From a virus (lineage: Duplodnaviria > Heunggongvirae > Uroviricota > Caudoviricetes): 15,025 nt of DNA. The stretch lies in the IMG/VR virus record IMGVR_UViG_3300010885_072628; one strand, 5' to 3'. The position numbers and the translations under genes were made by a program. Each line of letters begins with the position of its first letter. Position 1 is the stretch's first letter. This document shows positions 4,414 to 14,015 of this stretch, one piece after another. The notes below the pieces were generated by a model. It was not told the DNA's origin. It was given only the letters and a program-made list of their open reading frames with translations, and did no database searches.

Positions 4414-4468
4414 GAAGTCGCCAAACATTGTGATGTTTGGCGACTTCTTGACTTTTTATTTTCTTTTC
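4414..4468 (+). terminator. Intrinsic terminator-like hairpin (perfect 15-bp stem, TGTG loop) with a T-rich tail
   Basis: GAAGTCGCCAAACAT (4414-4428) / ATGTTTGGCGACTTC (4433-4447), then TTGACTTTTTATTTTCTTTTC. Confidence 0.75.
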
Positions 4469-4476
4469 GTTAAACT
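4448..4476 (+). promoter_or_regulatory. sigma70-like promoter upstream of csrA1
   Basis: TTGACT-N17-TAAACT. Confidence 0.7.
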
Positions 4477-4520
4477 GGACCTTGTTGTTTGATTCGTTCC
4501 ATCGCAAAAAGGAATTTCCG

Positions 4521-4703
4521 ATGTTGGTTTTAAGTAGAAAAATAGATGAAAATATAGTAATAGGCGACGATATCAGAGTTTATGTGTTGGACATAAGAGG
4601 AGACACAGTAAGGCTTGGAATAGAAGCTCCTTCAAAAATTCCAGTACATAGAAGCGAAGTTTACGAAGCCATAAAAGACGGCAAAAATGACGCAAGAAGA
4701 TGA
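4521..4703 (+). CDS. csrA: Carbon storage regulator CsrA/RsmA, paralogue 1 (60 aa)
   Basis: [51 protein letters not shown], with the RNA-binding Arg44 conserved. ATG 4521 follows AAGGA and is preferred over the track's TTG at 4482. Confidence 0.97.
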
Positions 4704-5370: not shown

Positions 5371-5398
5371 TTTACAAGCCAGTTTTTTGTGCTATCCT
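5371..5398 (+). promoter_or_regulatory. sigma70-like promoter with extended -10, upstream of the ligase-parB operon
   Basis: TTTACA-N16-TATCCT, with TG at 5390-5391. Confidence 0.6.
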
Positions 5399-5400
5399 TA

Positions 5401-5465
5401 AGGAGGGATCACCTCTCAGGAGGGATCACGGCATCAAGGGATTGACGATATTTCACGGAAGATCG
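5401..5465 (+). promoter_or_regulatory. GGA-rich 5' leader with multiple candidate CsrA-binding sites
   Basis: GGA at 5402, 5406, 5419, 5423, 5439 and 5457; AGGGAT three times; direct repeat AGGAGGGATCAC twice; TCACGGAAGA (5453-5462) exactly matches the CsrA/RsmE consensus (A/U)CANGGANG(U/A) and overlaps the ribosome-binding site. Confidence 0.7.
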
Positions 5466-6098
5466 ATGAAAATAATTTACCCACCTCGTCCGAAGGGCAA
5501 AATGTTGCCCTCTGATCTTAAGCTATACGAGGACGGAGACTGGCTGGCCCAAAGAAAATTTCGTGGGTCTAGGATCGTTATCAATATAGCCAAGAACAGA
5601 GATATAACTGTTGGTAGCCGACACGGTGCCAAATTCTCTAAATTTGATTTGAGTCAGAGTGAGCGACAAGAGCTTTTGTCTTGTCTAAATTTAGAGGACA
5701 ACAAAGAATATTGGTTGGATGGCGAGTTGATGAATAAGGATGTAGATTCTACTAAGGAAATAATATTTTTCGATGTGTTGCAGGCTGGCAACTATCTCTT
5801 CTTTAAGCCAACACAAGAGCAAAGAATCGAAATCCTTAAAGAGATTTGTAATAATCCCACAAAAAAATGTGCTTCTGGAATTGCTCTGGAAATTTCTACA
5901 AAGTTCTGGATGGCAGAGACATTTGTTGATAATTTCAGAGCTAGATTTGATGAGTCTTTAGATAACGAACAACTTGAAGGTTTGGTTCTGCGTAAGAAGC
6001 GTGTTGGGTTAGATAGTTTGGGCGAAAAAGAATACGAAACAACTAATTTGATTCGTTGTAGAAAGCCTTTTTCGAAAACCAAAGGGTACGAGTTTTGA
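5466..6098 (+). CDS. ATP-dependent polynucleotide ligase-like protein, adenylation domain only (210 aa)
   Basis: Motif I QRKFRGSR (KxxGxR, Lys31), III WLDGELM, IIIa IIFFDVL, IV EGLVLRK, V-like LIRCRK; no room for an OB domain. Start re-assigned from 5349 to ATG 5466. Confidence 0.8.
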   Translation: MKIIYPPRPKGKMLPSDLKLYEDGDWLAQRKFRGSRIVINIAKNRDITVGSRHGAKFSKFDLSQSERQELLSCLNLEDNKEYWLDGELMNKDVDSTKEIIFFDVLQAGNYLFFKPTQEQRIEILKEICNNPTKKCASGIALEISTKFWMAETFVDNFRARFDESLDNEQLEGLVLRKKRVGLDSLGEKEYETTNLIRCRKPFSKTKGYEF

Positions 6099-9251: not shown

Positions 9252-9737
9252 ATGCCAAAGGGCAAAAGAACCTGTCCTATATGTGGCAAGGAAACTGGTG
9301 TCCGCATCAAAATATGCGATTGCGGACATCAGTTTCTTAATAAGCCAAAAGTAGAAAAAGAATCAACCATAGATACATCTGTGGTTGACAAGCCTATCGT
9401 GCTGCACCAAGCAGTAGAGCAAAATCAACCTGTAAGGGTTGGTGGCTCTATAGCGAACCCAGTTATCTTTGCCCCAGAAGGCCGTTGTCCTTGCAAGCCA
9501 GAAGGATATAGAAGTGGTTGGCCCGATGGACCTGCCTCTGAAGAAGTTATAATTGAATGGGCGTATAGAGCTTTTGATTCTGGTGGAATTAAAAGATATA
9601 CGCCACATGCAATTCTATACTGGTCATATCAGTTTTGGGATATTAATGAAAAAGACTACAAAAGAGTCCGAACAATTATTCTCAAAACTTTATGCACACC
9701 AGAAGAGCTATTAGAATTCGGAATTGAGTTCTGTTGA
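9252..9737 (+). CDS. Zinc-ribbon-containing hypothetical protein (161 aa)
   Basis: MPKGKRTCPICG...CDCGHQF basic zinc knuckle; the C-terminal helical domain is unassigned. Confidence 0.78.
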   Translation: MPKGKRTCPICGKETGVRIKICDCGHQFLNKPKVEKESTIDTSVVDKPIVLHQAVEQNQPVRVGGSIANPVIFAPEGRCPCKPEGYRSGWPDGPASEEVIIEWAYRAFDSGGIKRYTPHAILYWSYQFWDINEKDYKRVRTIILKTLCTPEELLEFGIEFC

Positions 9738-9905
9738 TTTTTCTTTAGTCAGTTCGCTTCTCAATACTGTAATTTCTTTATCTGCTTCTATTCCTATTCT
9801 TACTTTATTGCGATTATCTATTCTAACTATCGTAATTTTGATATCATCCATATTTGGACCTCTCAAGATTATGGTTTCATCTTTTTTTCTGCTTAAAACT
9901 AACAT
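9711..9905 (-). CDS. csrA: CsrA/RsmA-family protein, divergent paralogue 2 (64 aa)
   Basis: MLVLSRKKDETIIL...IKITIVRID.RNKVRIGIEADKEITVLRSEL: N-terminal MLVLSRK, VRIGIEA and the Arg44-equivalent (LRSE) are retained; there is an insertion after beta2. Confidence 0.9.
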   Translation of the reverse strand: MLVLSRKKDETIILRGPNMDDIKITIVRIDNRNKVRIGIEADKEITVLRSELTKEKSTELNSEF

Positions 9906-9936
9906 CTAGTTTCCTTTCTATTTCCTTGTTTTTGTA

Positions 9937-10035: not shown

Positions 10036-10063
10036 TTTACAATCATATTTTCTGGTCTAGACT
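10036..10063 (+). promoter_or_regulatory. sigma70-like promoter, same hexamers as the clpX promoter
   Basis: TTTACA-N16-TAGACT. Confidence 0.65.
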
Positions 10064-10142
10064 ATTAGAAGGCGAGCTTTGCGGGCAAACTGCCCATGCC
10101 CGAAAGGCCGCAATTTTTAAAAATGGGCGCGGAGAAAATGGA

Positions 10143-12065: not shown

Positions 12066-12094
12066 TTTACAACCGGCCCCATCTGTGCTAGACT
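12066..12094 (+). promoter_or_regulatory. sigma70-like promoter with extended -10, upstream of clpX
   Basis: TTTACA-N17-TAGACT, with TG at 12086-12087. Confidence 0.7.
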
Positions 12095-12155
12095 CAATGC
12101 AGGGGCGGCAAGGAAGCCCCATGGGCGTACAGGGCGGAATCAACAGGAGTGCCTT
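12095..12155 (+). promoter_or_regulatory. GC-rich structured clpX leader with three GGA motifs (candidate CsrA target)
   Basis: Hairpin GGGGC-GGCAAGGAA-GCCCC (12102-12120) with GGA in the loop; GGA at 12136; ACAGGAG (12143-12149) doubles as the Shine-Dalgarno. Confidence 0.55.
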
Positions 12156-13421
12156 ATGGCTAAAAAAATGTTTCATTGTGATTTTTGTGCCAAATCTAGT
12201 AAGCAGGTTGGGCATCTAATAGAATCACCTTCGTTCGACAAAGAAGTAAACGGCAGGGTCAAAGGTACTAATTTCTTCATTTGTACTAATTGTGTTGAGC
12301 TTGCTTATAAGATGTGTAATGTCGAAGAAGACGATGACGATTACGAGGCAGAGATTGTTAATTTGGATATTCCCAATCCTAAAAAGGTTGTTGAATATAT
12401 GGACAAATATATTATTGGTCAGGATTTGGCAAAAAAGACATTGGCTGTTTCTGTTTGCAATCATTACAAGCGTTTATTTGCTCCAAAGTTTGAAAACGAA
12501 GAGCTGAACGACGTTGCTGTTGAAAAAAGCAACGTGCTTTTGGTAGGACCAACCGGATCTGGTAAAACATTGTTTGCTAGAACTTTGGCTAAGTTTCTGG
12601 ATGTTCCATTCGCTATTGGAGATGCAACGACACTAACAGAGGCTGGCTATGTTGGCGAAGATGTTGAAAATCTTGTTTTGAAACTTCTTCATAATGCTGA
12701 TTTCAATGTGGATGCAGCACAAAGAGGTATTATTTATATCGACGAGATTGATAAAATTGGTCGAACTAACCAAAATGTTTCAATCACTAGAGATGTGTCT
12801 GGTGAAGGTGTTCAACAATCGCTTCTTAAAATGATTGAAGGCACCGTTTGTAATGTTCCTCCAGCCGGTGGTCGAAAGCACCCAGAACAGTCCTTTATTC
12901 AAGTAGACACCACCAATATACTATTTATTTGTGGTGGAACATTTGTGGGGCTTGAAGAAATTATCAAAAAGCGTCTTTGTAAGAAGTCGATTGGATTTAA
13001 TAATCAGCTAGAATCTAAAGAGTGGACAGCAGAGCACGTGGTCGAAGAGGATCTTGTCGAATACGGTCTTATTCCAGAACTTATTGGTCGTTTGCCTTGT
13101 ATAACTCCCTTGAAAAAGTTTGATGTTGATTCTTTGGTCTCTGTGTTGTCTGATCCAAAAGACTCGCTTGTTAAGCAGTATAAAAAGCTGTTTATGTGCG
13201 ATGGAGTAGATTTGGTATTCGAACAAGAGGCACTGCAAGCTGTTGCTGAAAAGGCTATCCAAAAAGGAACTGGAGCACGTGGACTACGTAGCATGATGGA
13301 GGGCCTTTTGATGGATGTAATGTTTGAGATTTCAGATCATGCTGGTGAGACAGTGATAATAACAAAGAATATTGTTTTGGGAAAAGAAAACCCCACTTTT
13401 GTTAAAAATAAAGCAGCATAA
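12156..13421 (+). CDS. clpX: ATP-dependent Clp protease ATP-binding subunit ClpX
   Basis: C4 zinc-binding domain (CDFC...CTNC), Walker A GPTGSGKT, pore-1 GYVG, Walker [20 protein letters not shown] loop GGRKHP, IGF loop, sensor-II GARGLR. Confidence 0.98.
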
Positions 13422-13433
13422 CTAGTATAGTTT

Positions 13434-14015
13434 ATGCAAAAAGTATCGACGTTTTTTACAGATTCTGATTGGAAGTTGTTTGGTATTGATTGGCTAAATA
13501 GTGCTAAAAAATCCAAACTATCAGGGTTTGTATTTGCTAATTTGAACGAAGATAACAAGTCAGAGGCAGAATCTTTGTGTTCTGCCTCTGACTTGTCTTT
13601 TTTTGAAGCTTCTTCTTATTTTGATATTTGTGCTAAGTTAAGCACGATTTTAAAAAATGAAAAATGTTTGTTTTTGCCTCCGTCTGTAAATCCTAGTTTG
13701 CTTCTATCGTCTTCAGATGTAATCTGTAGATTGGTAGAAGCAAAACCTGTTGATTTTGTAAATTCTATTTACAAATTAGACGATAAAGTAACGGCAGTAA
13801 GATCTCTAGAACGTATTAAGAACGTATACGGATCTTTATTATCATCTGAACTTTTATGCGGAACAGCGGATTTTTGGCATAGTTTTTTTGGTTTTCAAAA
13901 TCTTTTATGTGATAAAGGATTTTTTGAAAACTATAATGATCAGTATTATCCAGATCTTGCACTTAATCTTTTTTTTGCAAATTCAACATCTTTTTCTTTA
14001 GAGACAATAACATGA
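13434..14015 (+). CDS. Hypothetical protein (193 aa)
   Basis: ORF packed between clpX and the GGCT-fold gene (ATGA overlap with the next gene); no confident motif. Confidence 0.7.
   Translation: MQKVSTFFTDSDWKLFGIDWLNSAKKSKLSGFVFANLNEDNKSEAESLCSASDLSFFEASSYFDICAKLSTILKNEKCLFLPPSVNPSLLLSSSDVICRLVEAKPVDFVNSIYKLDDKVTAVRSLERIKNVYGSLLSSELLCGTADFWHSFFGFQNLLCDKGFFENYNDQYYPDLALNLFFANSTSFSLETIT

Follow-up and report, generated by a model that had tools for sequence, protein, structure and literature searches.

The preferred ligand of CsrA is a GGA presented in a hairpin loop, and in the consensus obtained by SELEX both the ACA and the GGA are 100% conserved (PMC4347634). A single CsrA dimer bridges sites that lie 10–63 nt apart (PMC7652899). 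According to the same review, which covers the work of Baker 2002 and Mercante 2009, the glgC leader of E. coli is repressed by CsrA. The flhDC leader is activated by CsrA, and a 5′-terminal site can block the entry of RNase E (Yakhnin et al., as cited in PMC4347634). CsrA also represses the ColE7 lysis gene cel (PMC2896534), and knock-down of the phage csrA gene PTXU04_00028 results in smaller plaques (PMC11879866). Literature searches returned no paper on the targets of phage-encoded CsrA and none linking CsrA with genes of huge or jumbo phages. For RsmE bound to hcnA, Schubert et al. in 2007 reportedly derived the consensus A/U-CANGGANG-U/A. Phage T4 encodes RegA, a small protein that shuts down early mRNAs of the phage itself by binding in the region of their ribosome-binding sites.

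Here we analyse the leader of a phage clpX gene that the original prediction had described as a CsrA target of textbook architecture. The window, by which we mean the whole stretch of 15,025 nucleotides analysed (IMG/VR record IMGVR_UViG_3300010885_072628), comes from an uncultured huge phage with a G+C content of about 37–40%, compared to 64% in the predicted clpX leader. The features discussed are collected in Table 1.

Table 1 Positions of the clpX leader elements and of the two csrA genes in the window.
Feature	Coordinates	Strand	Description
csrA1 promoter, sigma-70-like	4448..4476	+	TTGACT-17-TAAACT
csrA1	4521..4703	+	60 aa; ORF spans 4482–4703, probable start 4521; Pfam PF02599, E 7e-26, 90.3 bits
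csrA2	9711..9905	−	64 aa, more divergent paralogue; PF02599, E 4e-17, 62.4 bits
clpX promoter, sigma-70-type	12066..12094	+	−35 TTTACA (12066–12071), 17-nt spacer, extended −10 TGcTAGACT (TG 12086–12087, TAGACT 12089–12094)
clpX 5′ leader, predicted	12101..12155	+	55 nt; start inferred from promoter geometry, 7 nt past the −10 element
5′-terminal hairpin, predicted	12102..12120	+	GGGGC (12102–12106) / GCCCC (12116–12120), loop GGCAAGGAA
Candidate high-affinity CsrA site CAAGGAAG	12109..12116	+	exact CANGGANG match
Middle stretch GCGTACAGGGCGGAATCAA	12125..12143	+	GTACAGGG at 12127–12134, GGA at 12136–12138
Shine-Dalgarno ACAGGAG, candidate second (bridged) CsrA site	12143..12149	+	6 nt before ATG
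clpX	12156..13421	+	421 aa; AAA_2 ATPase, ClpX C4 zinc finger, ClpB_D2-small domain

Results

The window ClpX is 70–78% identical to relatives encoded in uncultured huge-phage contigs from IMG/VR and metagenomes, which are up to 444 kb long. The relatives keep a conserved N-terminus, MAKK..CDFC, matching the ATG at 12156, which confirms the clpX start codon. A megablast of the window region against a phage collection gave no match, the exact clpX leader was absent from IMG/VR, and one metagenome scan for ClpX returned nothing above 57% identity. The TTTACA/TAGACT motifs of the predicted promoter are in place upstream of the gene, a promoter scan concurs, and the promoter is probably of the early class. 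We compared this locus with 12 further clpX loci at 70–78% identity and with some at 55–62%. A promoter was located in 13 leaders, i.e. at all close loci except L174, and these leaders are 31–69 nt long; the comparison was made without P0002, the closest ClpX outside L001 and L167. All 13 are preceded by a promoter of the form TTTACA-16/17-TAnnnT, often GTGCTAnnnT, and the TTTACA-16/17-TAnnnT form is also found upstream of the more distant clpX loci.

The 5′-terminal hairpin has the lowest predicted energy, within the leader as well as alone; folded alone it has an energy of −10.7 kcal/mol and accounts for 78% of the ensemble. In an alternative register, GGC and GCC enclose a hexaloop AAGGAA. 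The GC stem with its GGA-bearing loop, the GGA at 12136 and the ACAGGAG over the Shine-Dalgarno sequence are all found where the original prediction put them. The near-consensus site GTACAGGG, also predicted, is correctly positioned and agrees with RUACARGG, but a C replaces the invariant A of the GGA core, so it is not a canonical CsrA site. The stretch in which it lies has a closing stem of 2 bp only and no proper ACA-N-GGA core. The loop GGA and the GGA of the ribosome-binding site are separated by 34 nt in the window, by 29 nt in L001 and by 31 nt in L167, inside the range spanned by a CsrA dimer. A terminator or attenuator at 12102–12120 was rejected, since the hairpin is not followed by a run of U. 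A sponge RNA of the CsrB/RsmZ type, which has more than five GGA hairpins, was also rejected: the clpX leader contains one well-formed hairpin and has no Rfam match. An Rfam search of the leader region gave no family at the gathering threshold nor at E below 0.3, and at a lax E-value only a sub-threshold GA-cis match, on the opposite strand and upstream.

Judged from the window alone, the case for the clpX leader motifs is weak. The leader contains three GGA, where 2.2 are expected from its own composition (P 0.37). When the leader's first 40 nt are shuffled, 2.2% of the shuffles contain a hairpin of at least 5 bp with a GGA in its loop, and folded as a whole the leader gains no stability over its shuffles (z −0.05). 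On both strands of the window there are 19 GGA-loop hairpins with a stem of at least 5 bp, the same as for control trinucleotides, and the clpX hairpin is the sole one of them within a 5′ leader. The CANGGANG motif has three matches in the 15-kb window, a number not above chance. One is in the clpX leader at 12109 (+), one in the leader of a ligase gene at 5454 (+), and the third is antisense inside a gene; two of the three sit in leaders behind one promoter class.

Three of nine close lineages, namely the window, L001/L168 and L167, have a hairpin with a closing C-G pair and a GGA in its loop. The core of the window hairpin is GGC-AAGGAA-GCC within GGGGC/GCCCC. The L167 hairpin, GGGCU(U)GC-AAAGGAA-GCAGCCC, is located at the predicted 5′ end, like that of the window, and the L001/L168 hairpin, CGUC-AAGGAAA-GACG, lies more than 20 nt from it; the minimum-energy or alternative folds of L001/L168 partly pair the GGA. 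The arms of the three hairpins are unrelated to each other, and what they share is the loop AAGGAA and the closing C-G. With the ribosome-binding-site ends trimmed, AAGGAA is the sole 6-mer that occurs in all three leaders. In 200,000 shuffles no shared 6-mer ever fell in the loop of all three, and 0.14% shared any 6-mer at all. The carrier lineages were chosen after inspection of the leaders; corrected for the 84 choices of three lineages out of nine, the probability of the shared loop stays small. It would be possible to regard all of these motifs as functionless beyond the promoter and the ribosome-binding site, with the likeness of the three relatives as residual homology, and the weak single-window statistics, the six of nine lineages without the site and the picking of carriers after looking would fit such a view. 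We consider it highly improbable in light of the corrected shuffle result and of the divergence between the carrier lineages, whose ClpX proteins differ at 22–24% of amino acids and whose leaders are otherwise unalignable.

A DNA operator of the form GGGGC-N9-GCCCC does not fit a motif with a conserved centre on varying arms, and this reading was rejected. The conserved loop with covarying arms points to sequence-specific recognition, without naming the reader. Any sequence-specific factor would fit this pattern, be it a phage or host RNA-binding protein other than CsrA, an RNase or an sRNA with UUCCUU, and most neighbouring genes are without known function. Such another reader is nevertheless very unlikely, as there is no candidate partner, no UUCCUU element was seen nearby and Rfam gave no match. 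A generic 5′-terminal stabiliser against 5′-end-dependent decay, the GGA loop of which has no protein partner, would constrain the stem and not the loop, the reverse of what the arms and loops of the three carriers display, and the position of the L001/L168 hairpin also goes against it. This explanation does account for the hairpins of the window and L167 beginning 1–2 nt from the predicted 5′ end, for a 5′ hairpin without GGA in the same place in L173/L176 and for the GC-rich hairpins that also follow a second TTTACA-16-TAGACT promoter at 10036; overall we regard it as unlikely.

The loop site is missing in six of the nine close lineages. It is absent from L002/L173/L176, L175, L169 and L171, and L170/L177 and L172 have an upstream GGA in unstructured form only. 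Where the contigs allow, lineages without the loop site are seen to have CsrA as well, so the site is dispensable. The carriers form no supported clade of their own in the ClpX tree, and L167 groups with lineages that lack the loop site, with moderate support (93/94); the site must therefore have been lost repeatedly or gained repeatedly. The conservation of the loop GGA, on which the original prediction had staked its reading, is thus partial, with AAGGAA kept on changed arms in three lineages. In L173 (2938–2957), and equivalently in L176, a 5′ hairpin has the loop ACGAG, and its arms differ by a compensatory change, CTACA/TGTAG versus CCACA/TGTGG. In L002 a 13-nt deletion has removed this hairpin.

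In a MAFFT alignment the AGGAG is invariant in the four closest clpX leaders and the window hairpin is paired with that of L167. The L001 hairpin together with GAATCAA is paired with window positions 12125–12143, and the middle stretch may therefore be an eroded, degenerate counterpart of the L001 hairpin GCGTCAAGGAAAGACGAATCAA. Two upstream sites may have been present in the ancestral leader. Should the loops of the window and L001 lack a common origin, an identical loop evolved on two occasions. The middle sites (12127–12134 and 12136) are not conserved as GGA in the relatives.

Both csrA genes of the window score far above the curated PF02599 cut-off of 27 bits, and both products match the PHROG family "CsrA-like regulator". 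They align with solved CsrA, RsmA and RsmE structures and keep the L4, R6 and R44 positions of strands β1 and β5, so that profile score and RNA-binding residues alike place them in the CsrA family. The alignment of CsrA1 with RsmA/CsrA structures runs from end to end, with L2, L4, R6, V42, H43 and R44 kept. The β1 motif is MLVLSRK in the phage CsrA compared to MLILTRR in RsmA (PDB 1vpz), and the context of Arg44 is VHR in CsrA1 and RsmA (PDB 1vpz) and VLR in CsrA2. Three related IMG/VR contigs (G001, G002 and G003), searched whole for csrA, each have a csrA pair, one on the plus and one on the minus strand, within about 12 kb upstream of clpX, and in L167 and L174 csrA is next to clpX. CsrA2 is nearly invariant in the relatives examined and visibly better conserved than ClpX. 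The csrA2 leader (−) contains CAAGGAA at 9922–9928, the ribosome-binding site being AAGGAA. In every homologue examined (five relatives) two GGA are found within about 30 nt before the csrA2 ATG, the leaders including window 9906–9935 (−), L164, L165, L166 and L174. The presence of two GGA before csrA2 throughout, together with the near invariance of CsrA2, suggests autoregulation by analogy with E. coli csrA.

We also searched for a wider regulon. In G001 (381 kb), leaders with a loop-displayed GGA showed no excess over control trinucleotides in an under-powered scan with crude ORF calls, and sense-leader A(N)GGA loops showed none over antisense and permuted controls, again in an under-powered scan with naive gene calls; in these scans longest-ORF starts swallowed even the clpX leader. 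A promoter-anchored list in G001 contains 12 sites, and some of the leaders are GGA-rich, with no clear rule. In the window, the ligase leader (5371–5468) has a promoter of the clpX class, TTTACA-N12-GTGCTATCCT, followed by a duplicated AGGAGGGATCAC, a GGGA, and CACGGAAG right before the ATG at 5466. The second TTTACA-16-TAGACT promoter precedes a GC-rich leader (10036–10142) with hairpins (GGGCA-AAC-TGCCC) and the sequence GGAgaaaatGGAATG; this leader heads a 161-aa ORF with a weak match to PadR-like winged-helix proteins.

Downstream of clpX, after 12 nt, lies a gene of 193 aa (orf193, 13434–14015) that is conserved in the relatives aligned and has no Pfam or PHROG match. Its identification as ClpP was rejected, as a structure search in the Atlas suggests a fold like that of GT-A glycosyltransferases, and the phage clpX has no ClpP beside it. 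Within the orf193 coding sequence, in a variable part of the protein, window positions 13555–13596 contain a perfect 18-bp palindrome followed by CTTTTTTT; judging from its sequence, this element, about 130 nt past the end of clpX, looks like a strong two-way terminator within an ORF. In most relatives a gene of about 290 aa with weak Sigma70_r2/r4 matches is found 1–2.5 kb downstream of clpX (L167 5985–6854, L170 5136–6023, L173 5718–6578 and equivalents elsewhere), and its product may be a sigma factor of the phage. A motif of the CTATTTACT type precedes this gene, and its ribosome-binding site lies within a hairpin of conserved position whose arms differ between phages. At the other end of the window, an open-ended ORF (3–488, −) with collagen triple-helix repeats possibly encodes a fibre-like protein.

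Discussion

The layout of the clpX leader is that of a classical CsrA/RsmE target module, in a setting where phage csrA genes are already known. As at glgC, a GGA in a hairpin loop (12102–12120) lies upstream of the ribosome-binding site, a second GGA overlaps the Shine-Dalgarno sequence at a distance within the bridging range, and a cognate CsrA is present in the system, with two PF02599 genes in the window and in G001–G003. The GGA of the ribosome-binding site weighs little, since any strong Shine-Dalgarno sequence provides one. Whereas glgC has four sites in the reviewed account, the clpX leader has one well-formed upstream site, a candidate from sequence; furthermore, the candidate target is clpX of a phage, which is likely regulated by one of the two CsrA paralogues that the phage itself encodes. 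The CsrA-target architecture of the original prediction stands in part: the hairpin-loop site and the ribosome-binding-site layout are real and of glgC type, and the two middle sites are not conserved as GGA sites.

The reading of the leader as a CsrA target gains from the two csrA genes of the phage, from their retention in relatives and from the recurrence of the AAGGAA loop. It is limited by a GGA density that is not above composition and by the lack of the loop site in most lineages. Taken together, we put the chances at about even that a CsrA-family protein would bind the clpX leader and change its expression, and the proposal that clpX is translationally gated by CsrA is a reasonable hypothesis. 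Regulation would likely be exerted by a CsrA of the phage itself, in place of or in addition to that of the host.

AAGGA is complementary to the 16S anti-Shine-Dalgarno sequence, and since AAGGAA is Shine-Dalgarno-like the ribosome is an alternative ligand of the loop. The loop might thus be a Shine-Dalgarno mimic that acts without CsrA, either as a standby site or enhancer or as a competitor for anti-Shine-Dalgarno pyrimidine tracts. The fold predicted for L167 pairs the true ribosome-binding site with a UUCUUUUCUUUU tract, and the window has a CCUU after its ribosome-binding site. The three lineages share no consistent anti-Shine-Dalgarno partner, however, and the phage has two strongly conserved csrA genes whose products have a known ligand of exactly this AAGGAA-type loop motif, which makes a mimic quite improbable.

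If CsrA does act on the leader, the mechanism would most likely be as follows. Transcription from the sigma-70-type, probably early, promoter would produce a clpX transcript with a start near 12101 and a leader of about 55 nt, the 5′ end of which would fold into the hairpin and present CAAGGAAG in its loop. A CsrA-family dimer would dock on this loop, the prime candidates being CsrA1 and/or CsrA2 and the host CsrA being possible, and its second RNA-binding face would capture the ACAGGAG 34 nt downstream. Access of the 30S subunit would then be blocked and the synthesis of ClpX lowered, as at E. coli glgC. Expression of csrA1 from its own promoter could result in a delayed shut-off of ClpX synthesis, similar to the action of T4 RegA.

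The opposite outcome, protection from 5′-end-dependent decay as at flhDC, is a live alternative by analogy, because the hairpin is 5′-terminal in the window and in L167. Both transcripts have a CsrA-type site right at their 5′ terminus; the flhDC leader, in the account cited, has no repressive site over the ribosome-binding site, where the clpX leader has a candidate one. If this mode were valid at clpX, CsrA would raise the level of ClpX. Given that CsrA acts on the leader at all, we would assign repression rather than activation a probability of roughly two-thirds.

The recognition element itself also resembles described ligands. The window loop CAAGGAAG fits the CANGGANG motif of the RsmE–hcnA complex (PDB 2jpp), and the closing C-G pair of the hairpin is that of the SELEX consensus for CsrA (PMC4347634). 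In hcnA the ribosome-binding site lies inside the recognised hairpin, whereas in clpX the hairpin is 34 nt upstream and the copy at the ribosome-binding site sits outside any predicted hairpin. As at cel, a CsrA-type site is found on a gene of a mobile element; at cel a plasmid gene is under the control of the host's CsrA, whereas here the element encodes its own pair of CsrA proteins. The carriage of csrA by phages is known from homologues such as PHROG 9500 and PTXU04_00028, and compared to these the clpX leader adds a candidate target.

It is possible, although we hold this only tentatively, that these huge freshwater phages share as a clade a Csr circuit of their own, in which two conserved CsrA paralogues would time early phage genes at the post-transcriptional level. 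The genes would be transcribed from TTTACA...GTGCTAnnnT promoters, with clpX, the ligase operon and csrA2 itself as candidates. Such a circuit would work like T4 RegA without being homologous to it; RegA recognises AU-rich start-codon sequences and not GGA hairpins. Phage csrA is common enough to form its own PHROG family, and the clpX leader, a few kilobases from two csrA genes, offers a concrete and compact candidate target, with an RNA of about 70 nt and two proteins of 60 aa. If the CsrA reading is true, phages would schedule their own proteostasis with an imported bacterial global regulator, a use that goes beyond host manipulation. If the phages do run their own Csr circuit, T4 RegA would have an analogue of bacterial type, and the members of the circuit would be the first identified targets of phage CsrA.
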